A stretch of DNA of 62,462 bases, the filler included, from Hausera hauseri (lineage: Eukaryota), in NCBI GenBank assembly GCA_046269625.1. It is 12 parts of 12 records of this genome, joined end to end, with 100 filler letters (N's around TTAATTAATTAA, not from the genome) between each part and the next. Parts side by side here need not be neighbours in the genome. Positions count along the whole stretch, not along the records: positions 1 to 4,567 come from JBJURY010524681.1; 11 more parts are not named here. One strand, written 5' to 3'. How positions within the stretch are numbered: position 1 is the stretch's first letter; each line of letters begins with the position of its first letter. The position numbers and the translations under genes were made by a program. The notes under the pieces are model-generated. The model ran no database searches, was not told the origin of the DNA, and saw only the letters and a program-made list of their open reading frames with translations. This document shows, one piece after another, positions 1-46,744 of this stretch.

Positions 1-400
1 TCGTGATTAATCCAAAGAGCCCCATTTAAAGCAGGGTTACCTGGAGTTTGTACATCTGTCTGTAAATGTAAACAGACCACAGAGTAGGAAAGCTCTGTAG
101 AGGATCCCTTCACACTCTGTAAAGCTTGTCAGATAGTGTTAATTTGATAGAACCATTTTAGTTCAGTAGGACTTTAACAAAGCTGCTGACAAAAGGAAGC
201 TGGTTACTTCCTTCTAGTGCTCCTTTCCTAAATACTGGCTTATTTTCATCCCCCTTTCCAGGCACGCGGTCCAACTCCAACATACGTCAGACTGTACGTT
301 AGTAGTACTTGTGGAAATTGTCACAACAAGAAAAAAAGCTTTAATGAAGAAAATCTCAGTAATTTATATATGAATTAATAATTTCTTTTAATTAGTATCG

Positions 401-560
401 AAACATCCCCAATTACAAAATACACCTCCAAAAATCATTAAGCCATACCCTGAACAACATAAAATACACCCCCAGAATATCTAAAGCAAAACACCCTGAG
501 ATTTAAGAAAAGTAAAAACACCCTCAGATAAAATTAAATTAGTACCAAGAACACCCCCGG
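401..560. repeat. Cluster of about 7 short AAA(T)ACACCC-like motifs with variable spacers
   Basis: aaacatcccc (401), aaaatacacct (417), ccataccctga (443), aaaatacaccccc (461), aaaacaccctgaga (488), aaaaacaccctcaga (514), agaacacccccgg (548). Confidence 0.55.
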
Positions 561-1129
561 TTATACCAAAACTTCCTCATAAGTAAAATTGGTATAAAAG
601 CATATGTTTAGATTAGTTTAATAGCCCTCAAAAAATTTAAAGTTTAATTTGAGTTTGCTATTGGCCATCAAAATCCAAAGTTATTCTGATGATTGCCAAA
701 TTAGACAATTTGTATTTCTCTTCAAATAAGGTATAAAGACCTAATTTTCGTTATCAAAGTCAGCAAGGAAGTAATTCCTTTGAAGCCATACATCTCATTT
801 GTATCGTTTGCCAGTACAAAAGCTAATTTTCACTATGTACAATTCATTCAAATAAAGATTTCTGAAGGTTTTGAGTCCCTTCCAATATTTGGGAAAGGTA
901 ACATTTTAATATAATTGTGTGTTTATTCTCTTCGCAGCCGAATAGCACAGTAGGCTGCGCGAAACACCAAAAAATAAAATTAACTATTAAGTTTATCACA
1001 CTAAATACTGACTATAAATATAATGTTTGTGTCTTCAATCATTGCATAAATCGTAAGAAAACAATAGTTTTCACTACTTTACGCTTTTTCCGAAATACTT
1101 TGTATCAGCACTGTACTCAAGCTGAAGAC

Positions 1130-1243
1130 GACGAAAAGGCTGAATGTACTAACCTTAAGCAGTCCCTGGAAGAAAGGTTCTTAGTAGAACCATCAGAAAA
1201 GGTTGGACTGGAGAATTCAACAGGTGACGTCACAGAAAGGTGA
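1130..1243 (+). pseudogene. gag: Frameshifted 5' remnant of gag (capsid-like helix)
   Basis: NLKQSLEERF resembles the retrotransposon Gag 'LK..L..RF' helix. It lies in a different frame from the downstream QKGETVQEY motif. Confidence 0.55.
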
Positions 1244-4200
1244 AACCGTGCAGGAGTATGCATGCGCCCTTCAAAAACTGGCTCAGAGAGCCTACGCAGA
1301 TGATGATATAAGGGAAGACGCCCTCCTAGCTCAGTTCTGTTACGGAGTCAATAAGGAAATCCAAAATTACATTATTGTCGCTGATCCGGATACCTATAAA
1401 GAAGCTGTTAGTAAAGCTAGGAAAATCGAAGTGAATTATGAGAGACTTGAAAATGCAAAAAAGTCTTTTAAGAATGATGAAAAGAAACAGAAAAATTTTC
1501 AACAAAAGAAAAGCTTCTCAAAACCATTTCAGAAGCACCAGAATCAACCTGAGCAACAGACTCAGAAGAAAGTTACGTGGCAAAAGCCACTTCAAAATAA
1601 TTGGCAGAATCAACCTCAAAAGTCCGCAATGAGAAAACCCCCAATCAACCAAGACGGACAACCGTTGTGTTTCGCGTGCCAAAGATACGGACATATGGCT
1701 CGTACTTGCCCCAATCAAGGACAGTCAAGCCAGAAGAAAAAGAATGTTGATATAGTAGGCAATATATCAGATACAGATAACGAACATGAAACCACTGACA
1801 CAGAAACCGAAGAGACAATTGAAAAATTACAACAGAAGATTAGAGCAAAGCTAAAAGAAAGTAAAACCAATACAGTAGAAGAAGAAGACAAGATAGCTGA
1901 ATTAAAACAGCTGTATCTCGAATTAAAGGAGCAACAAATTTGCGAGAAAAGACAGAAAATGAATGACGAAAGTTCAATTATTGCCCCTGTTCGTAGACCC
2001 AAAAAGACTCCTTCATCAGAATCCGATACCGAAAAGAAAAGGGTTAAGAAAAAGGATAAACCCTTGATACAAGAGGAGGAACTGAAGACTCCTGAACTAA
2101 ACCTACCTTCTGGAAGTGAAAGTGGAAAAAGTGAATCAGGTGGAGAAGCTGAACCTAAAGAAAAGATAAAGAGAGTGAGGAAAAAGAAAACAAAGGAAAA
2201 ATCTCCAAGTTACGAGCCCTCATCTGTGGATTTAGACCAGGATGGTATAGAAATAGTTCGGAAGATATCCAACTATGCTAATCAAGAACTTATTGATGAT
2301 AATCGGTTTAGACAAGATTTGTCTATGTTACTTTCACCAACGATTAGTCATCAACAATTTATTAATTTATTGGACTTATTATTAACATATGCTGCTGGCA
2401 CAAGCCCATATCAGAATATTGTACGGTATATAATTTATCGGTACGCCAACAGAGTAAGGACCATAGGAGAAGATCCAGAAGTAATGGTCACTCTTCAACA
2501 ATATAACCAAGATTTCCAAATGTTTAGAATGAAATCATCAGATACGATAGCTATGTTAAAACATCGGATTAACGAAATAAAACAATCTCAAGGCGAATTA
2601 GAATTACGATTCTATGGGAGAACATTAATGGATTACGAAACCTTATATGAAGTAGGTATCTGGGAGAACAGATATAATCCAGTATCTATTACTTATAGAC
2701 AAACTGAACAAGAAGTAATAGACGAGATTATAACGGATGTTAGGCGAAAAGAAATACAAGAAGCTGAACATCAATATACGACTCAACAAGTAGAGGCTCC
2801 GCTGAATATGCCTATATCGGAACAAATGCAAACCGATAAGAGGAACCGTGGAAGACCAAAAGGAACCACGAAACTCTATCAGTTAAAAGGCAGAAAGGCC
2901 AGGGATGATGAAGTGGTCCGAAGACTGTTGACAACAGAAGATGAATACGATGTAGACAATGTATCGCTAACTACATTATTACAAACACTATTAGCACGAA
3001 TACATAATGCTTTTGTTGAATTCAATACAAATTTACAAATACCAGACTCATTAATGCAGAATATTAGGAATGAAATTGCAAAGATCAGTGAACAGTTCGC
3101 AGATATTCCTACGGACGAAAGAATAAATGAAATACAAGAGAGAGACATTCTTTCAAGAATGATGGGAAGTGGAATATCCCGAAATAAAATCATAACAGCT
3201 ATGTCCTATCTTTTGTATAAGATAATGGTAATGAATGGTATAAATCCAAACCAAGAGGAAATTGAAAGAAACATAGAAATTGCTACAAGAGCACTAAAAG
3301 CCAATGTAGAAGGATGGGTAAAATGTAGAGGTGGATGGATTACTAGTCTAGTTCATACAACAGTTCATGAATCAGCACCGACTACGCAAGAACGAGTAGA
3401 ATATCCTCCGCCTCAACAAACTGAGAGACAACGAAATCAACAACCAGATCTTGATTTATCATGGTTAACTAAAGTTATACCCATACTTCTTCTATTTAGT
3501 CTGATTCCAAAAGCACTCTCAATTATTGCTTATGACTGCAGTCAAGCCAAGGAAGGCCCAATATATTCTTTATTGGATTTAGAAAAATGTCCATTCGCCA
3601 ATCCAGCATCATTAACTACGGTATCCGAAAAAGACTATCACGTGTATCAGGAATCGGAATTTGCGAAAACTAAGGTGAAGGAATGCTTTGTTCGAAAAAA
3701 TCATTTTCACTTTATTTGCGGATATTGGTACCGAAATTCAGCTGTAGTAGAACCAACCACCCCATTTGAACCACTTTCGATAAGTAAGCGAATGTGCATA
3801 GAAGCCTTCGTAACGAAACAAATAACCATTGGAAATATTCGACTCAAAGCTCAAAAAGGAAAAATCATAAACAAGAGAATCTTTATGGCAGGAACTATCG
3901 ACAAAACAGGCTACTGTAAAGGCGAATCGTACAACATTAATGGTGAAATTCTCGATAATGTTGTAGCTATCGAGGATTACCAAGTCGAGCTAAGGGAATA
4001 TGATGCTCTTTTTGAGTTATCGTCTGGAAAAATGATGATATTTCCAGAATGTGATTATTACAATAAAGAATGCGAAACTGGTGAATCAATTATGTCATAC
4101 GAAGTCGACAAGGATCAATGTCAACTAGCCCTGTTACGAAGCGGGAAGTTTAATGAGACAAAAGGGAAAATGTACAAGGAAGAGATATCGAAGAGTCGAT

Positions 4201-4567
4201 TAGATCGAGCATCAGATACTATCGAGACACCAACTATAGTGTACTCAGCAGACCCCAGCGAAGGAATGAGATTTAAAATAGAAGGCGAGACAAAAAAATG
4301 TAATGAAGTAGTCTATAGAACGAATTACAAAGGCATATTCTTGTCACCAAATAAAATAAAGGAAGCAAAAAGAAATATACATAAATCGGAGGTGAAACCT
4401 CACTTGTATTTCGATAATAAAATTGATTTTATCTACCATTTCCAACAGGAGAATATTTACGCGATGTATCGAGAAATAATATTAAACGACTGCAAATTAA
4501 ATAGAGAAATAATTAGAAATCGGATATACTTATCAGCAATAACGGATGGTATAATGAAAGACCCAGC
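1203..4567 (+). CDS. gag-env: LTR-retroelement polyprotein: Gag capsid C-term + CCHC zinc knuckle + ubiquitin-like domain + AT-hook + internal signal peptide + chuvirus/gB-like (class III) envelope glycoprotein. Runs off the contig end.
   Basis: More than 1100 codons without a stop. Motifs in order: QKGETVQEYACALQKLAQRAY..LLAQFCYGV (Gag); CFACQRYGHMARTC; SSDTIAMLKHRI..LRFYGRTLMDYETLYEVGI; RGRPK; VIPILLLFSLIPKALS|IIAYDC..YSLLDLEKC. No protease DTG, RT YxDD or integrase motif. Confidence 0.85.
1668..1709 (+). other. CCHC zinc knuckle (nucleocapsid)
   Basis: C-x2-C-x4-H-x4-C: CFACQRYGHMARTC. Confidence 0.95.
2481..2699 (+). other. Internal ubiquitin-like (beta-grasp) domain, no C-terminal GG
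   Basis: SDTIAMLKHRINE matches ubiquitin SDTIENVKAKIQD; LRFYGRTLMDYETLYEVGI matches LIFAGKQLEDGRTLSDYNI. About 73 aa. Confidence 0.8.
3462..4567 (+). other. env: Signal-peptide-like hydrophobic segment followed by the ectodomain of a chuvirus-like/gB-like fusion glycoprotein
   Basis: Hydrophobic WLTKVIPILLLFSLIPKALS, then AYDC-x-SLLD-x-C, YQ, EC..CG and a regular Cys pattern typical of this glycoprotein family. Confidence 0.8.
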
Positions 4568-4959: not shown

Positions 4960-6234
4960 TTAAAACAAACTCGGAGAAGGAAAAGTAGTTGTTGGTAAGA
5001 AGGCGGGAGGAGAAAATGGAGGAGTGGTAGGAGTATGAATGGGAGGTGGAGTGGATGTGTGAACAGAAACAGGAACCGGAGAAAATGTAGTAGGAGTAGA
5101 GTTAGAAAAAGAAACAGAATGAAATGTAGGATTCAGAAAATTTGTCCAAGTTTCAGTTGGAGAGGTGTCATTCACAAAAAAGGCAGGTTTCACATTATTT
5201 ATATGGACTGCTAATTCCTTTCCGGCCTTAAGAATTATCGCGTTGTGGGAGTGCAATTGAATTAGCTTATAGGGTCCTAGATACTGCGGTTGAAACCCAC
5301 AAGGTGTTTGATTACGTAACCAAACGAACTTTTCAGAATACAAATTGTTGGGCAAATACGTTTTATTGTTGTGTAGTATTCTACAGAACGAGTCTTTACT
5401 GACTTCAATGAAATGGTCCTGTGCTGCTTTGATCTTATCATCTGTAGGCGTATTATCTAGTGCGGCTAACTCGAACAAGGAGCGAACAGGTGTTCCAAAT
5501 AGTGCTTTGGTAGTTGAGCATCCTGTGGAAGTGGATGGCGTGTTCCACCAACCGAGCAGAACCAAAGGAAGAAGAGCAGTCCAACTACTGTTGGATTCAG
5601 CGAGAATTTTTAGCGACGTTTTCAGGGTTCTGTGGAATCTTTCAATAAGGCCATTAGATTGGGGATGATAAGGTGTAGTGTGTATGTGACGGATTCCCAA
5701 TCTATTGACGAGTGATTTGAATAGGTTGGACTCGAATTGGGGGCTTTGGTCCGAAATGATAAATCTAGGAGATCCGAACCTGCTGATCCAAGCGCGGATG
5801 AAAACTTCGGCTATAGTATCCGTGTTAGTGCTTCGTAGAGGGACAGCTTCTGGCCAACGTGAGGCGCGATCCATCATGGTCAAAATGAATTGATGACCGT
5901 TGTCAAGAGGGAGAGGACCGACGATATCTATATGTACAGACTCGAAGCGTGATGTGCAAGGGAAATGATATAGTGGTGGCTTTAGATGTTTTGTGATTTT
6001 AAATTTCTGGCAAGCCACGCACTCCTTAACCCATGCTTGCACATCGGAGCGCATGGTTGGCCAAACTACTTGCCATTGAAGTAGACGAAAGGTTGCTTTA
6101 GCACAAGGATGATGTAACAAATGTACATTATGAAATGCCTGTTTGTGTAAAGATGGAGCAAGGATTATCTTGGACTGCCCTGGTTTAGAGGTATCTAAGG
6201 TCACGCCATCGACTATCTGATGAGATCTAAACAA
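4960..6234 (-). CDS. pol: Gypsy integrase (HHCC + DDE core + GPY/F) with S/P/T-rich tail
   Basis: HLLHHP..CVACQK; VHIDIVGPLP; MDRASRWPEAVP; SDQSPQFES; YHPQSNGLIERFHRTLK; YLGPYK. Confidence 0.95.
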   Translation of the reverse strand: MFRSHQIVDGVTLDTSKPGQSKIILAPSLHKQAFHNVHLLHHPCAKATFRLLQWQVVWPTMRSDVQAWVKECVACQKFKITKHLKPPLYHFPCTSRFESVHIDIVGPLPLDNGHQFILTMMDRASRWPEAVPLRSTNTDTIAEVFIRAWISRFGSPRFIISDQSPQFESNLFKSLVNRLGIRHIHTTPYHPQSNGLIERFHRTLKTSLKILAESNSSWTALLPLVLLGWWNTPSTSTGCSTTKALFGTPVRSLFELAALDNTPTDDKIKAAQDHFIEVSKDSFCRILHNNKTYLPNNLYSEKFVWLRNQTPCGFQPQYLGPYKLIQLHSHNAIILKAGKELAVHINNVKPAFFVNDTSPTETWTNFLNPTFHSVSFSNSTPTTFSPVPVSVHTSTPPPIHTPTTPPFSPPAFLPTTTFPSPSLF

Positions 6235-6239
6235 TTTGA

Positions 6240-6870
6240 AAATATCTTGCGATGGATGATTTTCCTGCAGTTTTGCATGGGTGAAAATTGGCGAAAAGTT
6301 GATCGAACCGACAGATCTGGATAAGAAATTATCAACTAGGTTGTCTACACCCTCGATATGTTTGATGTCAAAGTTAAAAGTTGATAAATATGAAATTTAC
6401 CGTTCTTGTCGAGTGGAAGGATGTTTCATTGTCATTATATTAATCAACGGTTTGTGATCATTCTGTATAACAAAATGGCGTGCCGTAAGTAAATGCAAAA
6501 AATGTCTTAAAGCGAGGACTATTGCCAACAGTTTCGGATCAAAAGTTGAATATCTAGTTTCTGGTGGAGTTAATTTTCTAGAAAAGAATTCTAGAGTCTG
6601 ATTTTCGCCTTTGTATAGCTGGTGTAGTACAGCCCCTATTATGATGTTTGATGCATCTGTAGTTAAAATTAACTCAGCGTCAGGTTTAGGGAATGTAAGT
6701 ATTTCCACAGTCTTTAATCCTTTACGTAACCTGTCAAAATCATTAACTAATTGTGGCGTCCACATAATTTTCTGATGTTTCTTTCCTCCACTTAAGTGAG
6801 GAAAAGTTGCTATGAGTTCCGAACAATACGGGATATACTTGTGGACAAAATTTAAAGTACCAAGGAAACT
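6240..6870 (-). pseudogene. pol: Gypsy RT thumb + RNase H, disrupted
   Basis: SFLGTLNFVHKYIP; LTTDASNIIIGAVLHQ; FFSRKLTPPETRYSTFD; NDHKPL; premature stop at 6397. Confidence 0.92.
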
Positions 6871-8060
6871 ATTCAGTTTTATATGAATGTTCTTTGCAAC
6901 TTTGCTGATAATGTTTATGCAGTAAATACCCGGTTTCTTGGTTAATTGAATGTCGTATGTATTTTGTGAAAATTTTGGTACTTCATCTGAATCGATAACC
7001 AGAAGAAAATAAGTATAATTTTTGGATTCAAGAACTGGTTGGATGTGCCCTTTCCTCTGAATTAAAATGATTTGTAGGCCCAATTAGCAGGATATTTTCA
7101 TAGAATCCCATTAAGGCCTTAACAAATTCCATTTCATCCGTATTCCACTGAGACCAATAAAATGGGTAAATTGATTTACTCATTATAAATCGCACAAACA
7201 TTAAAATATCATCTGGAACACCATAATACGTATATTTATTTTTTGATACTCGAGGAAACAAAATTTTTATCGTCGGATACCTAATTACGTTTTCGTCATT
7301 GCATTCATCATTGTATTGGTTGCAATCCAGTCTGATCAACTGAATATCACAAAGATCAACATTCATTAGACTTTTGAAATTAGAATCTGAATTTGAGTTT
7401 AGAAATTCTTCGAAAATTGCTAAGCCACGAAGGGATGCAATACTCCATGATTGATAATAAAATTTGATGATGCTATCATTTTGATATTTATAATACTCTT
7501 CAGTCTCCTTAGAATCTTTGGCCAAGTAGTACATTTGATGAAATGAATATTTTGCAAAACCATGACAATCACCAGCAATACCAAAACAGTTAACTGTGAA
7601 AGACAAGTCACTCCGTTTTCCATCACACCTGTGGATACTATTTAATTGATGTAATAAGTCAACTGTAATTTTTCGTTTCAAGGAAAATTCCTTCAAAGAA
7701 TCCACATTCTCGGATATCACAACACAACTCTGTTTATGACTAGAACACAAAAGTATTGAATGATTGTCCGAAAGACTTTCGTAATTATCCATCCAATCTT
7801 TGTAAACTCTTACGAAATCAGTTTTAAACAACTTAACAGCAATTCTAAATGGATCAACCAAACGGAGTTCGTTCAAAAATTTGTCTGTGAGCTTCCGAAG
7901 AGTTGTTATTGTTATTTTTGGGGAATAGTATAACCAGAGATTCACAGAAATAAATAATATATTTGTAGACAATTCTCTGCTTCGTTTCATCAGCAATATG
8001 TCTCATGTCCAGCAGCTGAAAAATAATATTTATTAACCAGATCTTTTGACGAAATATCAA
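6871..8060 (-). pseudogene. Thioredoxin-fold/PDI-family host gene fragment, TXNDC16(ERp90)-like, frameshifted
   Basis: DSIIKFYYQSWSIAS..LIRLDCNQYNDECNDENVIRYPTIKIL..TYYG..FVRFI..IYP resembles the non-CxxC thioredoxin domain of TXNDC16. Main ORF is 7028-7996; it continues in another frame down to 6871. Confidence 0.6.
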
Positions 8061-9946: not shown

Positions 9947-10637
9947 TTCTCTACCATATAACTTAAATTAGGAGAAGGGTTATCTCTGTTTATTATTTCT
10001 TTCTCCTCAGCATCACCTCTGCCGGAAATGAGTAACTAGCAATCTCTCTATGATGCAGTCACACTCTTCACCGATGATAATTTTTATTAAGCAAGCAAAC
10101 CTGTGACAAACTAGCAACAACTACGCAACTGTAAACATCGTTTTAACTGTGACAATGTTGGTTGTCTGAAAATTACAGATATATCACAGCTTGTGGCACA
10201 GACTCCAGACTGCATGTTGATGCGTATAATTAAAACTACATATATTAAATACTGATTGACATGCCACAACAATGAGCATGTGTGCTGACCCCTGCTCACC
10301 TTTAGGTGAACTCAGGTTTCAGTGACTCATAGTCATTTGCCGCATGACAGGGAGAGTTGACTGACAGGTGATAAGACTGCTTAATGACCAAAGGCTAAAA
10401 ATCATTAGTTCTCATCGAGAAGTTGAGAGCACGTGTTGTTGCCCTATGAATCGGCACAAGACGCACTGGACGAAGACTGCTTTGACGGTTTTCAAACCGG
10501 GACACGTGATGATTATGACCAAAGACAGTACTGTCTTAATACCAAATCTCCATGATCCAGGTCACGGAAAGTCCTTAACCCATACAATAAATACCTTGCC
10601 GCTGACTAAACTAAAAGACATAATGTAAAGTGCATAC

Positions 10638-11171
10638 CTGTATGCCCAGCTTCTTCTCCACGGCCAGAGCACCACACAGGTAACCTGCCCTGCCCACAAA
10701 CAGTTCATCGCAGCCTTTTGGCATAAATTTGGTCTTACAGCATTCAGGCGCAAGAGATTGATAGCGTTTGATGTTGTCATCTAAAAGTGTTTCATCTTTC
10801 AACGCGTGCCCTAAAAACATGCCAACTACGTACAAACCACACGGTCCAAGAATGAATGACACCTCTTCTGCTTTAGAACGTGGGTTCTTCTGTAGAATTC
10901 TCATATCACGATCGTACAAATCTTTAGCCAGTCTCAAGTACTCCCGCTTGTGTTCAGAGAATGGCTCGTATAGTGAAGCCCGATACAGCATGTAGGCAAC
11001 GCCAGCAGAGCCGGTATAAAGGCATCGTTCAAAAGGAACGGAATATGCAGCGTCGATAACAGTCTTGATCAGAGCGAGAATACGCATATGCCACATGTCC
11101 TTGTCTATAACAACTTCATCACCAGGAGTGTAGTCCGGGAGGGTATTGACAAAGTACCTTAGTCTCGGCAT
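10638..11171 (-). CDS. LANCL3: LanC-like protein 3, first coding exon
   Basis: RYFVN..DY; LYTGSAGVAYMLY; SFILGPCGLY; GCDELFVGRAGYLCGAL. Ends at splice donor CAG|GTATGC (10638/10637), matching the KQKLAQE|V boundary as I recall it for vertebrate LANCL3. Confidence 0.9.
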
Positions 11172-20080: not shown

Positions 20081-21660
20081 TTAGGTGCGTATGATGCGTT
20101 GTATTCCGTCTACGGATTTTTCCCTGCTATAGGTACAAAATGTCACTCTGCATGCCTTATTTGATTGATTTGTACTTGGCTGTTGAACGATATTTTGTGG
20201 TAGACGTTTTGTAGGGTTTTCTGATTCAATTTGCTGTGTTGTTTGTGTTGAAGACATTAAAGATGGTGAAGAGAATAAATCAAGAAAGAGAGGCAAAGAA
20301 ACTGAAGGTGGTGACGATAGTGAAAGAGGGGGAAGAGAGGCCGACGGAGAAAACGGAATAAGCGATGTAGGTACAGTAGTCGGTGCGGAAAATGAGGATG
20401 ATTTATTACGAGAGAAACGTGGTTGCTGCAGCGGAGCGAATTCGTGGAGAAAGTTTAAGGAAGTAATGGAAGGAGTGAGAGTTGAGATAGAGTTGGAAGT
20501 AGAATCTGCACCGGATTTTCATCAGGGAAGAAAGCGAGTTTAAGATTCGATATGTGGACGTTGTAGAGTTTGTCTCGGCGTAAGATGGTAGCTGTATGAG
20601 ATGAGAGGTGAAGCAGTTTATATGGGCCAACATACTGAGGTCAAAAACCCGAAGGTGATTGATCCTTCATCTATACAAACTTGGCTGAGTATAAATCCTT
20701 CGGAATGTATGATTTGTTATTGTTTAATATGCAGCAGAACTAGTTTGAGCTGACCTCAACAAAGTGAGACTGTGCCGCACGAATGTTTTCGTCTGTCGGA
20801 TTGTCGCTGAAGTCAGAAAGTTCGAACAGAGCCCGTATTGGAGTTCCAAAAAGTGCCTCGGCTGCACCACAACCCGTGGTGATGGAAGGCGTGTTACGCC
20901 ACCCGAGTAGAACAAATGGTAGGATGAACGTCCAATTGCGATGATTGTCTGCCAAGATTTTTAAAGAAATTTTCATTGTTCGATGTAACCTTTCAAGAAG
21001 GCCATTTGATTGTGGATGGTACGGTGTTGTATGGAAATGTGATATCCCCAAGCGTTTAACAAGCGATTTAAAGAGTTCCCATTCGAACTGCGGACCTTGG
21101 TCCATTATGATGTTCCGTGGGGATCCAAAACGACTGATCCAGATTTTAATGAAGGCATCTGCTACTGAATCAGTGTTTGTTGAACGGAGAGGAACGGCTT
21201 CAGGCCAGCGAGAAGCACGATCCATCATAGTGAGAATATGTTGATAAGGTAAGGGTCCAACAAGATCAAGATGGACGGTATGAAAACGTAATGTACATGA
21301 AAAATGGTAAAGCGGCGGTTTAAGATGTTTGTTTACATTGTATTTTTGACAGTCTACGCATTCCTTAACCAAACCCTGTACATCTGTGCGCATTGATGGC
21401 CAAACTACATGACGTCGGAGCAAGCAAAACGTGGCTTTCGAGCCTGGACGATGAAGTGAATGCGTGTGAAGGAAAGCTGGTTTTTGCAAAGAAGGAGCGA
21501 GAATGATTTTTTATTACCGGGGTTAGATGTGTCGTATGCAATGCCATCAATGATTTCGAAGGATTTGAAAGAACGAAGAATATCGGCAGACGGCTGATTG
21601 AGCTTTAGAATTGCGGTAGAAAATATTGGTCCAATCGTAATTGAACCGATCGACTGCGAC
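20081..21660 (-). pseudogene. pol: Gypsy integrase with low-complexity tail
   Basis: HSLHRPG..CVDCQK; VHLDLVGPLP; RWPEAVP; DQGPQFE; YHPQSNGLLERLHRTMK. Confidence 0.93.
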
Positions 21661-22900
21661 AGCAAAATCTGCGACCAAATTCTCAGTATCTGAAATATAC
21701 TTTATGACAAAACTAAATGTAGATAGATACGATATCTGTCGTTCCTGCCTCGGTGATGGCTGTTTTAGTGACATGATGTGCAGCAGAGGCTTGTGATTTA
21801 TTTGGATGATAAGTAGACAAGAGAGGAGGCGATGCTTGAAATGTTTTACTGCCAGAACTATAGCTAGTAGCTCACGATCAAATGTTGAATATCGGTTTTC
21901 TGGTTGCGTGAGTATTCGAGAGTAAAATTCCAAAGGTTCATCGACGCCGTTGGAAATATGGTGTAGTATTGCACCAGTAGCTATGGTAGAGGCATCGGTT
22001 GTAAGTATTAGCTCCGCGTGGGATTTTGGATAGGCCAGTATTTCGACCGTTATTAGGTCTTCACGCAAGTAATCGAATTTGGTGACTAAATCGGGAGTTC
22101 ATTGGATTAACTGTCTTTTCTTTCCAGATGAGAGGTGCGCGAAAGGTGCTGTAAGCTCAGAGCAATGCGGTACGTATTTATGGACGAAATGTAGTGTGCT
22201 AAGAAAACTCCTCATATCTGTAGTGATCGTTGGTAGTATTACATTTTTCAATTGCTGTAGTCGATCAGGTTGTGGAGAGTGGCCGTGAGCAGTGATGATG
22301 TGGCTTAAGAAATTGGCACGTTTCTGAAAGAAGTTGCCCTTAGAGAAGTTAACTTGTAAGTTCCTATGATGTAGTCTGTGAAAAATAATTCGGAGATGTT
22401 CATGGTGTTGTTTGACGGAGTTGGAGGCAACTAACATGTCATCGATGTAAGGATGAGCAAAATCAAGGCCTGAGAGAACGGTGTCGATGTGGTGTTGAAA
22501 AGTTTGGGCTGAATTATGTAAACCGAATGGCATAAACATGTGTTCGTAAAGGCCAAATGGACTGATGAAAGCAGTCTTTGGATTGTCATCGGGTGAAACA
22601 GGAATTTGATGGTAGGCTTTGTACAGATCTAATGTGAAAGAGGTATTGGTGTTGTTAAGACTGCAGGATGTCTTTTATGAGCGGTAATGGGTAATCATCC
22701 ATGATGGTTAGATTGTTTACTAGACGGTAGTCGCCACGTGGTCAAAAAGTACCGTCCTTTTTTGCTACTACATGTAATGGTGAAGCCCGTGGTGATTTAG
22801 ACCTCCAAATGATACCAGATTTTTGGAGTTCGTTAAATTCTAATTCCGCGGCTTTTCGTCTCCGAGGCGATAATGGTCTCACCTTTTGTCTGCTAGGTCT
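21660..22900 (-). pseudogene. pol: Gypsy reverse transcriptase + RNase H
   Basis: ASPLHVVAKKDGT; MPFGLHNSAQTFQ; YIDDMLVAS; LTTDAS; RYSTFDRELLA; NHKPL. Confidence 0.93.
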
Positions 22901-23115
22901 TTGGTGTCGGATGACAATGTGGTGATAAGTTGTTGACAGGGGCTTAAAGCTAGAGTTCTTTTTAAGTATACGAGAACAAGAAGAAATGATGTAGGATTTG
23001 AGATTGGAATCCAGTGATAAAAGTAATTGAGGCTTATTATCAGAGAAGACGGTGACTGTGATTGGCAAAGAACGAAGGACATCGCCGCCGTCAACATTCG
23101 GTTTAACCGATTGTT

Positions 23116-27466: not shown

Positions 27467-30436
27467 TTTCGTCGCCAGTATTCTCGGTAGATTCTGGAAA
27501 AGGCAACTTACTTAATTCCTCTTGCCGACACACTTCTTTTGCAGTCTTTACACTAAAAACTGCTATCTCCACTTCTAACATTCAATCGTTCGACTTCTTC
27601 ATCGACACCGGTGCAGCGATCTCACTACTACCACTTTCTTTTCCGGTCCAGCCTTCTTCACTTAAAACAAAACCTTTATACACGGTCTACGGTCAACCTC
27701 TTCATATTGGCGGAACTTGCAAATTATCTTGTACTTTGCCTAAATTTTCCTCTCCATTTTACTGGACGTTTACAGTCGCTAACTTCCAGACGGCAATACT
27801 TCGCTTTAATTTCCTTTCGCACAATAATTTGCTAGTCGATTGTAACCAACGCTGCTTAAAATCGAATACACCTGTAGACTGTAGCACAGGAATAGACAGC
27901 ACCCCAACGACAACACAGCCAACAGTAAGTAGGTAGTCTATATTAAAACACTCAGTACCTCATTATAATTCCAATAACTATCACGTTTTACATCGTAAGC
28001 TTCCAAAGAATAATGCTGACAGTCAATCACAGCTTAATGTCGACACCCACCATCTGGTATTTTCAGTAAAATCACTGAACAACAACACCTACTCAAATAC
28101 GGTTTCGGACCCGACCATCCTACTTTAAACTCCACCCGATTCCTCATTAACAACCATCCACCATATACCAAGTACTGCTAGCAACCTTGATTCATCGTCA
28201 CTCACAACATTCTAGCAACTACCTATAAGTTTACAACATTTCATCCATATTTCTTGTCCTCGTATACTTTAGAAAGATCGGAACTTCCCCCCAGTAAACG
28301 TCATTTACCATCATATAATTACAAGATATCAAAGACCATTTTGACAAAAGGTCCCTCCATTGTCACCGCGTCGCAGGAAGGCAGTAGAGACGGAATTTAT
28401 GGAACTGGAACAATCAGATATCGTCCGCAAATCTAAATCCCCATGGTGTTCACCTCTCCACGTTGTCAAAAAAGGATGGATCCTTCCGACCATGCGGCGA
28501 TTACCGCCAACTTAATACTTTAACCATAATGGGTGCATATCCACTACCATTAATCAAAGACATTACATCGACTTAATACTACTTCAGTTTATTCAACAAT
28601 TGATTTAGCCAAAGCTTACCACCAAATTCCTGTCGCACCGGAAGATATCGAAAAATCTGCTGTTACCACATCTTTTGGTCTTTATGAGTACTTGTATATG
28701 CCTTTCGGTCTCCGGAATGCTGCACAGACTTTTCAGTGACACATCGATTCAATCCTTTCAGACTTCACTTTGCTCATCCATATTTTGATGATATCTTGGC
28801 TGCTTCTTCTTCTGTTAAACAACACGAGGAACACCTACGATCTATCTTCAAACGACTTAACCAGTTCAATCTATAGATCAATCTTGCGAAATGTAACTTC
28901 TTTCAAAAACGCGTTAATCTCCTCGGACACATTATCTCTTCAAACGGCCATTCACCTCAACCTGATCGAGTCGAGACTCTTAAAAATGTCCAACTATCTA
29001 AGACAACAACAGAAACGCGCAGTTTTCCTGGTACCCTGCATTTCGCCCACAAATATGTTCCATATTGTTCGGAACTCACGGCACCTTTTGCACATTTAAG
29101 CGGAGGAGAAAACACCGGAAAATCGTGTGGACACCACAACTAGTTAATAGTTTTGATAGACTACGAGAAGGAATAAAGACTGTTGAAATACTAGCATTTC
29201 CTAAGTCTGACGCTGAGTTAATTTTAATTACAGATGCATCAAACATCGCAGTAGATGCTGTACTACACCAGTTGTATAAAGGCGAAAATCAGCCTCTAGA
29301 ATTCTTTTCCCGAAAATTAACGCCATCAGAAACTAGATATTCAAATTTCGATCGGGAACTGCTGGCAATAGTTCTTGCTTTAAAACACTTTTTTCACTTA
29401 ATTACGGCTAGTAATTTTGTTATACAGACTGATCACAAACCATTGATTAATATAATAGCAATGAAGCATCCTTAAACTCGACAAGAACGGCAAATTTCAT
29501 ATTTGTCCACATTTAACTTGGACATTAAACATATCGATGGCGTTGTCCATCTAGTTGCCGATTTCCTATCTAGATCAGTCGGTTCAATCAATTTTTCGCC
29601 AATATTTACTCAGACAAAACTCCAAGAAAATCAACAATCCCACGATATTTTCAAATCGTTCAAGTCACACCACATCGTTGACGGCGTGGTTTTAGATACT
29701 TCCAAACCAGGACATTCTAAAATAATTCTTGCCCAATCTTTACACAAACAAGCATTTGATAGTATACATTCATTACATAATCCTGGTGCTAAAGCAACTT
29801 TTCGCTTGCTTCAACGCCAAGTAGTTTGGCCGTCGATGCGTTCCGATGTACACGCATGGGTTAGAGTGCGTGGCTTGTCAGAAGTATAAAACCATAAAAC
29901 ATTTAAAACAGACATTATAACAATTCCCTTGTACTTCACGTTTTGAAACAGTACATTTTGATATCGTTGGTCCTCTTCCAATAGACAACGGCCATAAATT
30001 TATTCTGACCATGATGGACCGTTCGTCACGATGGCCAGAAGCCATTCTACTGCGTAGTACAAACACTGACACAATAGCCGATACTTTCATCCGTACGTGG
30101 ATTAGTAGATTCGGATCTCCTGGTTATATCATCTCAGACCAAGGTCCACAATTCGAGCCAAATCTGTTCAAATCTCTAGTCAACTGATTGGGAATAAGTC
30201 ACATTCATACAACACCTCATCATTCCCAATCAAATGGCCGACTTGAACGTTTCCACCGAACTTTAAAAACATCACTTCGAATCCTCGCACCGTCAAACAC
30301 CAATTGGACTACACTTCTACCGTTCGTCCTTCTTGGCTGGCGAAACATTCCGTCCACATCCACAAGATGTTTACTAACGGAAGCATTATTCGGAACCCCT
30401 GTACGGTCACTGTTTGAACTAACCATTCTTGAAGAT
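27460..30436 (+). pseudogene. pol: Gypsy pol (PR-RT-RH-IN), heavily disrupted
   Basis: FFIDTGAAISLLP (about 27595); SPLHVVKK; MPFGLRNAAQTFQ; YFDD; ITDASN; DRELLA; TDHKPL; DIVGPLP; QSNGRLERFHRTLK. Confidence 0.93.
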
Positions 30437-31469: not shown

Positions 31470-31879
31470 TATTTTGTAATTCTAAGTATATAGATAATGT
31501 CGGAGAATAGAATTAAAAACAAACAATGTGTAGCATAATTTGTTGAAACAACGCCATGCTATTAGCACACCTTTATTTATATGCAACCATCAACATTTAA
31601 ACAAAAATTATTTACCGCGAAATTTAAACAGTGGGGTTGGAATAGTGAAACCACGATCAGTCCAGAAAAGGCTTTATTCAGTGTCAAAATTTAAACAGAA
31701 AATTTTTTTCCCCGCAAATTTAAATTTTTTATACCACCTGAATCCATACAGTACGCGTGCTTGTGTGTAATCACTTTGTGACTGTGTGACTCCTATCGTT
31801 TTCCCTAACCCATGACTTATCCGCGAACCACATCTTTTCTCCTTCCCTGACGGGTCTGTTTTGGTGTGCTTACATCTAC

Positions 31880-34673
31880 CTACTTGCATTGACCGCCTGA
31901 ACTGAACCTTACTGGTGTACGTAACCAGCCGCTTTTCTTTGTTACATAGGCGCGCATTGAGCCGCTTTTTGAGTTTCTCTACTGTTTTGCCGTAGACAGA
32001 TTTATTTTTTAACTTGTAGTAGTCCTTTACGAACTTTGTACAAGCTGCAGCTCGTTCTTTTGAATTTCGTTCAATGTATGGCTTGAATATTGGCTCCTAA
32101 TTGAATTTGATAGCGCGATGCAGCTGTGTGTCGCATACACCGAGCTGCATGTAGAACTATAGCAGACGCCAATGGATCATGTAATTCAACTTCGGTTCAT
32201 GCGCCATGAGGAGTTTGTTCACCTTTATGCCGCCGAGCGTACATTGGCTGATTGGTGCGACAGTCAATTGGTCCAAAGCGTCATGCAACTCATCCGGTAC
32301 GACGAGATCAACTTTCATCAGGTAGCCGAATGAGCTGTTTTCTGCCGTGTCTGCTGTTGGAAAATTTTCCAATATTGCCTCCAGATCTTGCTTGTCAGTT
32401 AACCATTCAAATGAACAGTATGGCAAGGGTTGCGAAAGGGCCCTGTCGTACAGGTAATTAATGTCAATGTGCAACAGTGATGTGGTGTTATCATCACTGG
32501 TTACGTGGTACTTGTTGACAAATATCATGCCGCTACAATTAGCAACAGCTCACTGTCCCGTCTAATGATATCAGAGCCGACGCTCAACTCACTCCTGGTA
32601 TGGAGTAAAAGATGAGCGGCTTCAGCCTATCTTCCGTCAACGCCTTAGTCCGAAATGTCCGAAACACGTCGGCCAGCAAGTACACGTCCAGTTTCAGATA
32701 GTGGAGCATGTAATCCAATAGGCTTCTGCAGCCGAGCTATGACTAAGATTCCTGTGCTGTGTGATATTTATCTTCTGTTATACTGGGCCACTGCGGCAGC
32801 AATTCCTCTGTTGTCTGAAGCTGCTCGTACGATACAGCAAAGTCATACGGGAATATGCCTTTGCTACGTGCAACATGCATCGGAAACTGCGTTGGTGTTA
32901 ACGGCACATCCGTCAAAGCATTTACCAACTTTGCTGGAAACACACTGAGGAACTGTAATGAGTCAAGGAATCGCATCTGGAACTGATTTATGCGTGCCGA
33001 CAGAGATAAGTATTTCTCCATCGTTGTTGGTATTATGGACAATTCCCAGTGTGGAAATCAATTAATGACCCATTTCAGAATATGGTGACAATCAACCCCT
33101 GAAGTGATCACATATCACCGGCAGGAATGGCCGCACACGCCGTGCTAAATTGCACGAATTACATGCTGCTCCCAGGTATCATCCGGTAAAGTGAGCCTGA
33201 TCAGGTACGAGCCGTTCTTGTTTATCGAATAGTGATATTTTGTGTCTCAGGTAGCATTTATCTGTGACTGCAAACGTAAGGCGTTCGTCTTTGTCTGTCC
33301 AGATGAAAGGCTTAGTGCTGTACCACTGTGCGATTTCCGCTTCCACTATTGCCTCAAACTGGTGCAGGAAATCACTTACACAGTTCCATCTGTGGAAAAT
33401 GTAATATTGCGGTTGTCCGGTGGCTTTTATTGGTACCAGCAACATACCGACGGCGATTGGAATGTGCTTTTAATTGTATGCGTTGTTCTACGATAGAAAT
33501 GCTTCAACATCTGCATAGACCACATATGCCGGACTGCCCGTTTTCGACCAGTCATTGAATTTCAGCTCCTTTTCGACGGGTATGACGTACATTGTTTTTT
33601 CCTATACGTTTCGTATGCATAGCGCCATGTGTTTTTCCATTTCGCTTCTGATCTGAAGCCATGCAAATATATAGGGCACCATTTGCAGCGTATATGTTTT
33701 TGTATGAACTGGTCATGGTCCACGTTCAGCAGTATGTCCAGATTTGTTACGGCCACGTAATGAAATTTTTCTGCCTGCTCCAACAGCAACAGGTATATTG
33801 CACGTCCACTCGGGTTTTCACTTCAATAGATTATGTCTACGTGAGGATTTTTGTAAATTTCCTCATCAGCCGGTATCTCTATTACTGAGTTGTACCGGAA
33901 AACGTTGATTGACAGTGTCGGATTACGCCGTTCAAAAGACGGAATGGTTTTGAGGTTTATCGCCATCCAGATTTCATCAAAGTCCAATTCGGAAAAATAC
34001 TGTCGATATTGTTTTGAACGATTTGCACGATTTCTGGGCATTCCTCATATTTTAATATAGCTAAAATACTGTAAAGAAAACAGTATTCTTCGCTATTATT
34101 TTCTACATTGCCTACAGTTTTAGAGTGCTTTAGGGCTGCAGGTGTCGGTATGAATGATCCCCGACAAGTATATCATGTCACTCGACTTTGTAATGATAAA
34201 GCCGAGACTGACAATCTTTACAATTCGCCATCCACTACCCTTTTCTGTGTAGTTGGCGATTTCCTCCTCAAGCTTTTCGCCAATCTCAGCGATAAAATCC
34301 TTGGTATAGGGTACAGCTTGATGTGACAGATACCATTGTTTTCTTTTGCCTCGCACGTTTTCGAATTCTGAAAGTGCATGATACTGCACTTTGCAGTGGT
34401 GGTGGTGTTGGAACTTGTCCACTTTAGATTCCAACCGGTTTCGCACAATGGATAGAAGATGTCTCAGTTGCGTTGTTGTTGTTGCTGACATGTTCACTTT
34501 TATATCCACGTACGATTTTTTCAGATCGTACCTGACAGTTATGTGTGGTTCCTCCCCCTGATGCTTCTGTTCCTGCTGCTTCTGCTGCTCCTTCTGCTGG
34601 TTTTGATTTCTGTTCTTTTGCAAGTATTCGTCAAATCTTGTTGAGGCCTGATGTTTTCTACTTGCTGAAAGAA

Positions 34674-40339: not shown

Positions 40340-43300
40340 CTCAGTGCACTCACTTCCCCCTACTACAGGAGATTAAAAACGTACGGCGAGAGGAAATTTG
40401 AAGAATAAAGCACTCCAAGTGGGTCAGAGGAAACGTCCAGAGAACTCGTAAAAAGTGGAAAGACGAACTAAACTCATGGATAAAGCGAAGTAAGAACGTC
40501 CCAAGAGCTATTAAAAACATTAGAAGTAGACCCAAAGTTAAAACGAGTGAAACTTAATTTAGAAAGATTGATTAGTGAAACTGAACATGCGATGGTAATT
40601 CACCCGACACAAAAACTGGTGAATGAAGGAAATACATCGAATTCTAAATATTGGGTATAAACCCAATAGACATTCCTCCTCTGATGGAAATATGCAAAAT
40701 CGCGTTTACCACGCCTAAGAAATATGCAAACATAGAAACTAGCATCGAATCTGAAAACAAGAAACGCTCCGAAATGTATAAGTTGAAGAATAAACTAATG
40801 AAGATGCACAATGAAGAAATGCAGAACGTGATAAAATCGTGTACTCTAGAATTGGACGAATATATGAATAAATTTAATTACGCTAAGTAAATCATGGAGT
40901 TTATAAAAGATCCAGATGACAAATTAAAAGACGTCAATGAGATGTTAGATAACGAGACATATGCTAAACTGATCGTAGCAAATCAACTAAAAGAATGGTC
41001 CGAGTTATTGTCAAGATTAGCCTGATTAATAGACTATTGCCTTAAAGAGCTTTCGGTGAGTGAACCAATATTAAAGCAGCAGTTAAAAGAGATATTACGA
41101 AATATAGATATGATGAAAGCAGAAATATACATTAGGATTCAGTTCGACGCGCTACGGCAACTGAACTTTATGAGTAAAAATCAGGAAGTGACAACATTGA
41201 AAAAGATATACAAGATGATTGAAGAAATAGAATTTATAGTAAAACGAGATATTACTGGTAATTTATACCCGAAACTAAGAAACATTCGTTTAGAAGGAAT
41301 CCGACATTTGACAACTAAACCTATTGATGAAATTTCAATACAACTTCTCGGAACATTAGATATTTTCTCAGATCAGAAAACTGCGTAGACGAAGTGTTGA
41401 AAATTTTGCACAAACCACAAGAATGAATGATAGGATTATATCAGAATTGTCAAGCCGAACTGATAAAAATACGAAATGACCATCAACTCAGTTTTGAAGA
41501 ATTTAAATTCGTAAAGAAATTGATGGAAAAAATAGATCCCGATTCAAAAATCTCAAAGGAAATATACGAACTTACACTATTATTGATGGAAAAGGCAGAG
41601 ATCAATGATGACAAGATGAGACATTTGACAACTTCAAATACGACATGTCGAATAGACGTGATTAAAACAAAACAAATAACAACAGGGTTAGACAAATTTG
41701 CCAAAAAATTTGAAATCTACAGAAAGAGGTCCGCTTTTACCGAGTCAGAAATAAACAAAAAGTCAAAATTCATACAAAGATGGCAGAGACGTAACCTCCG
41801 AATGAACTGATTATCAACAAAAGGGGTTTATCCAAGCCGAAAAAACTAGGCCCATTACTGAAAATAATTCAGCATGCTTGTGGAAACGGAGTGGAATTCC
41901 GAACCACATAAATGAAAGAAATACGACCAAGGTTAAAAGAAATACGAGAAATCGTTCAAAATACAAATACGGCACTTTTAGACTACGGACTTCCAGAGGT
42001 CGTAAACGGACAAGATTGGGATGCGTACTTGGATGATGTATATCATCAAGGTCCAAGGACCCCAATACAACTTAGAGAGACCGACGTATGTCCACCGGAT
42101 CGAAGATTCTACGTGGAAATTCCTCTGACTGAAAATCATTTTATCGAACAAAGTTATGTAAATAAGACTAAGAATAAGTTAAGACAACTAATTTCTACAT
42201 TGACTAAACTCTCAAGTGAAAATGCAATTTATTGTGCAGTGCGAATACTTTTAATAAGGAAATACGCTAAATCTTAAGGGGTAAACCCGAAGAGACGTTT
42301 AAAGTAAAAGTATCGTCTGAATGGATGGATGAAAAAGAAATCGAATGTTCTACATCGACATCAGTTGGAGATATAAAACAGTGGCTGGTGTAAAACGTTG
42401 GTAGAAGCAAAGTAAATTATCGATAGTATTTTAGAGGAAGAATACTGGATGAACTAGAGTTATTAATAAAGGTTGGGATTATTTCCGAAGAAACAAACCG
42501 AATAGTGGCCATTATCACCAATGAACAGACTAAAGATGAGGCTGAAAGAAAAGCCAAGACTGAGCATTGTGTAGGACGAATCATGTGAATTCAAGACGCT
42601 GCGATGTACTTCGAATACTTGCAGACGGACGAAGATAAATAACAATATGATAAAAATCTAGTGCCATCAAGAGGAATAATGCCACCTGCTAGGAAGCAGA
42701 AACGGTTGGTCGGAAGTCCAAGGAAAATGCGTGACAAGGTCGACTGCAATACGGCATAGCAATTACGGTATTTGACTGAGACAAATTCAAACTGTGTCAA
42801 AAATATTCATTAATGGATTTAGAGATGTTAGAAGATGCTAGACCCATAAACTAGAGACCATTGAAAAAAGTACATATTGTTTCAACAACGTGAATTAATC
42901 GCATTAGACGGAATGGAATGTATGTTGCGAAGATCAAGAAGTATTTTCCACTGCGGACAAATGCACGAGCACTCCTCCGTAATTAGGCCGTAATATAAAC
43001 AACAATGCAAACAAGCTCAAGAAACGGGTAAATTGAGATGGGGTGGTATGAAATTGGAAGCGCAATAAGAAAAAATAATTCGAGCATACAGGCCAGCAGT
43101 TGGAAAGCTAGATATGCATACTGAATACTGTAGCGTAGCAGAATACGATACTAGAAGAGGAAAAGAAGGCGGTGTAAGAATAGTCAATTTCTATGAAATT
43201 AAAATGCAAACTCAAAAAGTAATGTTTCATAGTGTTACTAAGGCATACACGGAAAATCATATATGTACTATCCAAAACTGTGCTTGTGCCTTTCTAAGTT

Positions 43301-43500
43301 CAGTGATAATTTGGGATCCACCCTCTAGAAACGATTGTCACTTCATTAAAATTAAAAAAATGAAATTTAACGAAACAACCAGAAAAAATACGTGAACACA
43401 ATAGATACTAACAGCAGATCAAGAAAAGACGTGGCTGAACGTTCCATGACTAGGATATTAATCTCGGAAGCTCACGGCCTGAAATTTCTTAAGAAGCAAA
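40340..43500 (+). pseudogene. env: Decayed relative of the 1203-4567 polyprotein: long helical region + UBL + AT-hook remnant + class III glycoprotein
   Basis: UBL 42298-42516 (YFRGRILDELELLIKVGI); KRLVGSPRK 42700-42726; ITVFD*..YSLMDLE from 42762; EC..FHCG, YC and KFNET align with the contig-1 protein. Confidence 0.8.
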
Positions 43501-43980: not shown

Positions 43981-45001
43981 AGATCTACATTGCGGCGCAC
44001 TATTGCAGATGGCATTGGTTTAAAGATGATGGGGATACTATTCGTGACACAAACGGAGCTTCTATACCATTTATACAGGCTGCATTCTTACCCGGTTTGA
44101 CCGAAATTTGGTAATGCTTCATGCTGCTGCTTCCTATAAATACATGGAGCAAATATTACCCAGGACACTAAATGCATGAGTTGTTTTAGTTTGTTATATA
44201 AATACGTCCAATTTAACTTTTCTTACTACCTTTTCTTTGCTTCCGTTTGCACATCTAATTACAGCATTCGAAGGGTTAATTCTTCTCAATTTCGTCAGAA
44301 TTGCATTTCTGATAACATTAAGACCGGCGCCTGTGTCGAACATTGCCTTGATTTTACGATTATCTAATTGGCAAGCAACAATCGGTTTTTTTCCTAGCCG
44401 TTTCTTTCTTTGACGATAAAATCAAAATTGGTTCGCGAGGTTCCACTGAAAACGGATAGTTTTAGAACTAATTGAATAGCATGTTTACATAAATACAGTA
44501 AAAACTCTTTTATTGGGACAGCAACAACCGTCAGCAAAGGGATACAGAAAATATTCGACTACGGGGAACGCCACAAATTATAATTTACGTCAAATTTGAT
44601 GAATACTTAAATAAAAAAGGAACTGATTAAGTTGAACGATCGAGATGAATCAAATAGATACAAAACTGTTACGACAATCGCAAATTGACAAGGTAAACTT
44701 ATTTTTGGAAATACTGCAAATTCTGGGAAATTTTTGCTAATTTTGAGAATCTCGCAAATTATAGAAATTTTTAATAATCGCGTTAGTTATCAAATGTCCA
44801 ATATCAACATATTTAGAATTGACTGGTCCAAGTTGGGAAAAATGTCTGGAATTTTATAGACAGCGGAAGTTGAGTAAAATGTAGAAATAGAGAAATCACC
44901 AATACGATCGCTAATGCCGCAAAAAAGAAAATGCCTAATAAAAAAAGTCCGACAAAACCTCGAATCTTAAAGCAACAAACAATTCTTTTTCTTTCATGGG
45001 G

Positions 45002-46498: not shown

Positions 46499-46744
46499 AA
46501 CTCGATGTGCTCTATCGATTAGCACTTTATCCCGATCGATTCGATCAATACTGCACTGTGCAGCGATCGATTTGTCAAATGTGCAAAAATGCCCTTAGCA
46601 ACGGTGCGTAACGGTACCGTTGCCTAGCACTTTATGGATCGATAGTGCTCCGGGTGCACTATTGATCGGCACATGTGCAAAATCGATTTATCGATTAACC
46701 CCCCCCCCCGGGGTCTGTGCCAGAATGCCCATTTTCTCCCTACT
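46499..46744 (+). repeat. Polinton terminal inverted repeat end (..CTACT)
   Basis: Homologous to 61660-61903; ends ccctact at 46744 and is followed directly by polB coding sequence. Confidence 0.75.

Follow-up and report, generated by a model that had tools for sequence, protein, structure and literature searches.

The window analysed here is a stretch of 62,462 nucleotides of the Hausera hauseri assembly GCA_046269625.1, made up of 12 short contigs with N spacers between them. Our analysis indicates that its first contig (JBJURY010524681.1, positions 1 to 4,567), most of which is filled by one polyprotein, is very probably the 5' half of a Burro/GYPSM1-like Ty3/gypsy LTR retrotransposon, that is, an endogenous errantivirus whose single polyprotein would extend through integrase. 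The predicted order of this polyprotein is Gag-CCHC-helical domain-UBL (ubiquitin-like domain)-AT-hook-Bcl-2-signal-Env-TM-protease(s)-RT-RNase H-integrase, which the window carries as far as mid-Env and which is found in full among relatives. The features of the contig are given below, with P0002 denoting a close copy of the window protein (P0001) from another assembly.

1124..1255, + strand: decayed upstream gag, out of frame and interrupted by a stop (tblastn with P0002 residues 76–115, 43% identity, E 2e-6)
1188..4567, + strand: open polyprotein frame of 1126 codons that runs off the end of the contig
1233..1463, + strand: Gag capsid C-terminal domain of the Ty3/gypsy type (matched below the Pfam cutoffs by Ty3_capsid, E 7.5e-4, and by Retrotrans_gag, E 0.04; 84% identical to P0002)
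1668..1709, + strand: CCHC zinc knuckle, nucleocapsid (zf-CCHC exceeds its cutoff, at 22.1 bits, when the knuckle is searched as a piece; motif scan)
2238..2471, + strand: four-helix domain with no assigned family (AF2 helices, model residues 7–81; precedes the UBL in many relatives)
2472..2702, + strand: ubiquitin-like (beta-grasp) domain (Foldseek E 2.9e-5 to ISG15/SUMO/ubiquitin; VIA Z 12.4; 75% identical to P0002)
2838..2861, + strand: AT-hook-like motif KRNRGRPK (motif scan)
2958..3353, + strand: Bcl-2-fold domain with a BH2-like WVKCRGGW (3315) and a diverged BH1, GISRNK (3171)
3462..3527, + strand: internal signal peptide or signal anchor before Env (residues 759–780; cleavage site judged by eye)
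3528..4565, + strand: N-terminal half of Env, a Monjiviricetes/chuvirus-like fusion glycoprotein (PF24664; predicted HSV gB-type, class III)

The open frame at 1188–4567 is real and well supported; the probability of its staying open by chance is ~1e-38 at its base composition. An earlier note on this DNA had described one frame of more than 1100 codons that is cut off at its 3' end, holds no protease, RT or integrase motif and is preceded by a 5' gag frameshifted near 1200–1240, and each of these observations holds. Position 4567 is the contig end, the gag sequence at 1124–1255 lies in a different frame and contains a stop, and motif scans of the open frame returned no D[ST]G protease motif and one YxDD-like match, which is located inside Gag. 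The same note took this to be the only long near-intact ORF among decayed elements; the frame is indeed open, but the comparison was made across unlinked contigs. No repeats of at least 25 bases occur inside the first contig, which lacks the 3' end of the element.

The earlier note had also called for further copies with the same gag-env junction, and P0002, encoded on a 4786-base contig, is such a copy. It has an intact Gag start, keeps every junction and is 74% identical to the window protein. By segment, identity is 91% in the Bcl-2 domain, 84% in Env and capsid, 75% in the UBL and 58–74% in the linkers, which is the pattern that selection on folded domains would produce. Moreover, contigs of four public sequencing runs cover all 22 of 22 bins between 1225 and 4567 and all domains, and the share of family contigs that continue into unlike sequence is 0 to 0.06 in these runs. 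In one of them, run X1, 16,387 contigs fall on this stretch, most at 80–95% identity, where run depth does not equal copy number and the figures are those of the rows shown. The family is thus polymorphic and multicopy. The other three runs, X2–X4, have variant spectra like that of X1 at far lower depth; library carry-over is possible, and the runs are not counted as four independent host species. The 10 sequencing runs listed include no RNA runs.

Upstream of ~1225, family read depth in X1 drops from tens of thousands to at most 414, and this bears on how the contig was assembled. An old diverged 5' copy could have been joined by the assembler to a collapsed high-copy path, in which case the frame need not exist in any one genomic copy. 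The abrupt changes near 1225–1240, where identity to P0002 goes from 43% to 84% and X1 depth from 414 to ~53,000, are consistent with such a mosaic, as is the lack of any listed contig piece that extends across the stretch. However, at many listed sites the window carries a letter that is rare in all four runs, which suits a single genuine copy with private changes better than a majority path, and P0002 is an independent open copy. We consider a mosaic possible but doubtful; it would concern the contig and not the architecture, and it is compatible with the identification of the contig as part of a Burro-like element.

Several of the domains listed above had been proposed in the earlier note from sequence inspection, and the follow-up supports them. 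The CCHC knuckle begins at 1668 as described, and the AT-hook placed at 2838–2864 corresponds to KRNRGRPK at 2838. The ubiquitin-like domain, placed at 2481–2699, was confirmed as a fold by the suggested Foldseek search. In particular, an AlphaFold model of residues 345–510 (pLDDT 79) consists of the four-helix domain and, after it, a ubiquitin fold. The UBL, searched as a piece, matches Pfam weakly at a below-cutoff E of 1.5e-4, while 317 of the 500 counted Foldseek matches have E<=0.001 and the VIA superposition gives an rmsd of 2.0 over 78 aligned residues. The four-helix domain, which was folded jointly with the UBL and gave no usable Atlas match, is kept along with the UBL in P0032, P0061 and P0152 and is found twice by profile in L001. 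The segment bearing the AT-hook (residues 549–590) is 93% identical to P0002, and GRP motifs resembling an AT-hook were seen by eye in P0006, P0007, P0008, P0032 and P0152. The UBL and the AT-hook may serve in processing or DNA binding.

Just before the signal, at ~2958–3353, lies a Bcl-2-fold domain that had been missed in the earlier note. An AF2 model of residues 585–735 (pLDDT 82) is a helical bundle of the Bcl-2 type. In the VIA comparison, Bcl-2-fold proteins occupy each of the top 35 rows, with Z declining from 12.3 to 5.5, and the first unrelated row follows at 5.4. All Foldseek rows shown are likewise Bcl-2 family members; the best E is 4.7e-3, and none reaches E<=0.001. Alignment rows P0013 and P0014 were misaligned; they were used in the fold prediction and left out of the later profile. 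A profile built on 10 family members matches Bcl-xL with an E of 1.1e-5, and Pfam Bcl-2 matches 8 of the 10 members at E up to 1, every one below cutoff. The window sequence WVKCRGGW conforms to the BH2 pattern WIxxxGGW, and GGW is present in 8 of 10 rows, with QGW and GGL in the remaining two. The BH1 signature NWGR is absent, as GISRNK lacks NWG; its Arg position is occupied by K or R in 9 of the 9 rows that cover it. The Bcl-2 segment is the best conserved folded part relative to P0002, its flanking linkers being 58–59% identical. As the profile does not match in L001, P0152, P0007 or P0010, the domain is optional within the Env clade described below.

The hydrophobic stretch that had been noted at 3462–3521 was recovered as the only hydropathy peak of at least 1.4 in the protein (residues 763–781, KD 2.28). 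A similar stretch precedes the AYDC-like motif in all 10 rows shown, and the distance from BH2 to the start of Env is 51–81 residues in 9 of 10 rows, the tenth having been mis-scored by the pattern. The proposal of a chuvirus/gB-like Env in frame also proved well founded: PF24664 (Monjiviricetes_fusion) matches residues 764–1118 with an E of 6e-27, above cutoff, over profile positions 6–354 of 653. A phmmer search of Env against PDB sequences gave 0 matches, and the predicted class III assignment draws on Pfam, the literature and motifs common to the gB-type Schmidtea Env.

Relatives of the window protein show where pol would be expected. A search of all proteins returned 312 at E<=0.001, the best 150 of which were listed; 20 were scanned, chosen by length or rank, together with P0152 and two loci. 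An Env tree was built by a quick method with a midpoint root from 86 of 143 profile hits (those with at least 270 profile positions, plus P0031), and in it P0001 and P0002 nest in a clade of 25 rows with an SH-aLRT of 97. An in-frame protease follows Env in 13 of the 25 (in P0012 only at E 0.0018), seven of which continue to RT and integrase. As for the remaining rows, P0153 is an unscanned cluster-mate of P0025, and 11 of the 25, P0001 and P0002 among them, end inside Env. No RT or integrase lies upstream of Env in the scanned clade members, and the order in relatives is PR-RT-RH-IN. The complete order is provided by L001, a single frame of 3703 residues with Gag, two knuckles, two helical-UBL units, signal, Env, TM (1774–1792), two protease-like domains, RT (2448), RH and IN, where the protease is at 2137 and the integrase core at 2982. 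The end of the window Env corresponds to L001 residue 1577, which is ~200 residues short of the Env anchor and 560 short of the second protease-like domain. A UBL stands upstream of Env and Pol in a single frame in P0152, P0010, L001 and L003; the last, of 3426 residues, carries UBL, Bcl-2, Env and Pol, and the order Bcl-2, Env, protease is found in both P0004 and L003. The closest relatives bearing pol are 34–39% identical in the matched stretch. Within the family of the window itself no join from Env to pol was seen; the ends of P0001 and of P0002 lie within Env.

Searches for related loci with the window protein found none in metagenome or viral contigs. With the family alignment, 3 loci were recovered out of 223 metagenome pattern matches, and none out of 96 from prokaryote genomes. 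One of 10 relatives carries a cluster name, which is that of a hypothetical protein assigned to a Flavobacteriaceae MAG and probably encoded on a misbinned animal contig. Pol fragments occur on other contigs of the window; they are only 26–36% identical to the pol of relatives, and we do not take them as a sign that pol is linked.

The absence of pol from the contig needs no explanation beyond the contig end, because the contig stops within Env and relatives in the clade continue into pol. A downstream pol was one of the options raised in the earlier note, and it is the one that the relatives display. It is unlikely that the family is instead a pol-less, non-autonomous derivative of a Burro-like element, supplying Gag, Bcl-2 and Env and obtaining Pol in trans. 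Neither copy reveals its 3' end, and a search for longer homologues gave two proteins only, both ~37% identical, which is weak evidence for such a family. The two ends inside Env nevertheless fit contig ends (4567 in the window and the end of the 4786-base contig of P0002), and 13 of 13 scanned clade members that extend past Env enter protease. An ordinary gag-pol-env element that lost pol by an in-frame deletion is far less probable still. That order is the usual one in env-bearing gypsy and BEL/Pao elements as described in PMC7642597, and a one-off deletion had been named in the earlier note as the finding that would undo its proposal; yet the junctions recur in P0002 and, in similar form, in the distant relatives P0032/L002, P0013 and L001, no scanned relative has pol before Env, and the linker between knuckle and UBL contains no deep joint or loose end among the run rows shown. 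Finally, a domesticated host gene fusing capsid, Bcl-2 and fusogen, which the earlier note had entertained and which the long open frame and strongly conserved folded domains would suit, is highly improbable because the family is multicopy and polymorphic, as the X1 contigs attest, and the 5' gag is broken in the window copy.

If the contig is the 5' half of a Burro-like element, a route for the processing of its polyprotein can be proposed. The internal signal (residues 759–780) would thread Env into the ER, where signal peptidase would cut Env from Gag. Env would fold in the ER lumen, its anchor would bring the chain back to the cytosol, and there the element protease would free Pol and process Gag. 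The earlier suggestion that Gag and Env are made as one precursor with an internal signal is upheld as regards the single open frame, the hydropathy peak and the PF24664 match; the cut by signal peptidase is a step that we infer. The released Gag-UBL-Bcl-2 piece would retain the signal as a C-terminal membrane anchor, and cellular Bcl-2 proteins have a C-terminal tail anchor at the same position. The Bcl-2 domain probably dampens host-cell death during expression of the element, judging from its fold, its conservation and the precedent of Burro1, which is reported to protect planarian stem cells via a captured IAP (cited in PMC13465017).

A more specific version of this proposal, to which we give only tentative credence, is that a compact, multicopy Burro-like lineage, possibly in a host other than the planarian families known to carry Burro, encodes a working anti-apoptotic Bcl-2 protein that is anchored by the Env signal peptide after signal-peptidase cleavage. 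If true, a single hydrophobic segment would serve twice, inserting the fusogen and holding the capsid and the death inhibitor at the ER. A functional test of the Burro Bcl-2 domain or of a signal-peptide anchor was not found in the literature searched, and subscription papers or supplements may hold one. Regarding the host, a LanCL3 exon on another window contig has its best match in Aplysia (46%), followed by molluscs and a brachiopod (37–39%), with no named flatworm among the 100 best rows. This suggests a divergent spiralian as the source of the exon, and a flatworm would fit; contigs of the window need not share an organism. Should the host not be a triclad, the range of Burro-like elements would widen.

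The finding does not extend the known kinds of retroelement. Its contribution is a compact family with Bcl-2 and ubiquitin-like folds supported by structure prediction, and the relatives reveal that these domains were gained, lost or doubled inside one Env clade. An element that is small and has a Bcl-2 domain but no IAP provides a simple case for asking whether such elements generally tamper with host cell death, and the part that appears most worth following is the Bcl-2 domain together with the possible use of the Env signal as its anchor.

Comparison with known systems shows that the architecture, which the earlier note had considered undescribed, is in print for two sets of elements. An in-frame gag-Ubi/SUMO-like-BCL2-env-pol layout was described in 2019 for the giant planarian Ty3/gypsy LTR retrotransposons Burro/GYPSM1 (Arkhipova and Yushenova, PMC6431247, citing Jurka 2007 and Grohme 2018), and Chary and Hayashi (2026, PMC13524379) describe GAG-ENV-POL errantiviruses from Nematoda, Bryozoa and Platyhelminthes. 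According to the former account, Burro/GYPSM1 elements have in common with the relatives of the window family a single frame with gag, CCHC, Ubi2/SUMO-like domain, BCL2-like domain, env and protease-RT-RH-IN, as well as a multicopy state, and their env matches mononegavirus fusion proteins, as the window Env does through PF24664. In agreement with this layout, the window family has an N-terminal gag with CCHC (its N-terminus intact in P0002), a UBL upstream of Bcl-2 and Env in frame directly after Bcl-2.

The differences are of size and content. The window family has ~890 residues before Env (810 in P0002) and one knuckle, whereas the same account gives Burro1 a frame of 4,873 residues and Burro/GYPSM1 two or three knuckles. 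The AIR1, Smc, MATH, BIR and ankyrin domains that it reports for Burro1 are absent from the Pfam matches of P0001 up to E 1, and between knuckle and Env the window family has no room for them. By these features the window family is not Burro1 itself. The architecture is therefore already known, and the family is a new compact addition to it, placed on sequence features and not by direct comparison with the Repbase Burro entries.

The Env of the window has features in common with the second set. In PMC13524379, Smed_errantivirus_1-6 are of the HSV/gB type, ~14.5–18 kb long and present in 1 to 215 copies, and their ORF order is that of the relatives of the window family. The YQES and TGES motifs of the window Env occur, within the eLife Env alignment file of that study, only in Schmidtea rows. 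P0031, by eye nearly identical to the Env of Smed_errantivirus_1, is 33% identical to the window Env and falls in the same clade, and the window family, judged by eye on sequence, is none of the six. Ubiquitin is not mentioned in the main text of that paper, nor ubiquitin or Bcl in the seven supplements searched as text, with long cells truncated.

Two further systems share single parts with the window element. Anakin, a BEL/Pao element (Dezordi 2020, PMC7642597), carries a related class III glycoprotein as a captured env, but on the BEL/Pao backbone reported there env comes after integrase, whereas the window Env directly follows the Gag-side domains and the protease of relatives comes after Env. 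The viral Bcl-2 homologues canarypox CNP058, EBV BHRF1 and ASFV A179L have their fold in common with the predicted window domain (Z 11.8–12.3 over 124–133 aligned residues, at 11–12% identity); these are stand-alone genes of large DNA viruses, whereas the window domain forms part of a retroelement polyprotein.

The first contig of the window opens with a separate repeat, which is approximately 96% identical to contigs in the public sequencing runs X2 and X4; positions 1-306 have zero depth in runs X1 and X3. Within the Gag-Env polyprotein frame that follows, two further Gag-side features were delimited.

1-336: separate repeat
1464-1649: Q/K/N-rich Gag segment
2238-2471: predicted four-helix domain

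The four-helix domain is conserved and accompanies the ubiquitin-like domain (UBL), and the unit formed by the two is present twice in L001, a related metagenome locus. An Atlas search yielded no usable match from which to place the four-helix domain in a family. The Q/K/N-rich segment is present in the related protein P0003 and missing from the second copy, P0002, and several low-depth contigs of the sequencing runs skip approximately 100 bases of it. This difference reflects either a length polymorphism or an intron introduced by the gene caller.

In the related locus L002 (61-4266), a single in-frame stop (3058-3060) lies between the Gag-UBL-AT-hook-Bcl-2 protein, P0032, and the Env signal, and the Env reading frame past this stop is the same as that of P0032. 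The stop, seen in one copy only, represents either decay or a site of stop-codon read-through.

Elsewhere in the window lie remains of other elements and a host exon.

5521-6900, minus strand: decayed ordinary gypsy pol fragment
10635-11171, minus strand: LanC-like protein 3 exon of a host gene (best match Aplysia, 46%)
20872-22924, minus strand: decayed ordinary gypsy pol fragment
28282-30364, plus strand: decayed ordinary gypsy pol fragment
~31674-33496: decayed Polinton-like, protein-primed DNA polymerase B piece, recognized by eye
42741-43389, plus strand: another Env, decayed, broadly of the type found on the first contig (against P0002, ~24% identity and E 3e-13)
44197-44421, minus strand: protease fragment
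46691-47572, minus strand: decayed Polinton-like, protein-primed DNA polymerase B piece (Pfam DNA_pol_B_2, E 4e-9)
~56439-59878: decayed Polinton-like, protein-primed DNA polymerase B piece, recognized by eye

The three gypsy pol fragments sit on unlinked contigs. The protease fragment shares its contig with the decayed Env, which it faces from the opposite strand.

Downstream of Env, two or more aspartic-protease-like domains are found in P0004, P0006, P0007, P0025, P0152, L001 and L003, the last two being loci whose frames run on through Pol. An Env-Pol polyprotein of the same clade, P0010 (HBK71150.1), is recorded under a Flavobacteriaceae MAG, where it is annotated as a hypothetical protein; it probably derives from a misbinned animal contig. 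Extra pairs of hydrophobic segments and accessory ORFs 3' of pol were also located.

L001 ORF, aa 3305-3609: hydrophobic pair after integrase
L003 ORF, aa 1585-1771 and 3160-3342: hydrophobic pairs between the protease-like domains and after integrase
P0152, aa 2753-3004: hydrophobic pair after integrase
L001, 12085-13473: accessory ORF (RNase_T, E 1.1e-3)
L003, 10617-12107: accessory ORF (RNase_T, E 1.4e-5)

The stretches enclosed by the hydrophobic pairs in L001, L003 and P0152 span 170-290 residues, gave no match in a Pfam scan at E 0.05, and possibly constitute a second small membrane protein within the polyprotein. Both accessory ORFs match DEDDh-type exonucleases, and such a post-pol ORF is common to the two complete relatives.
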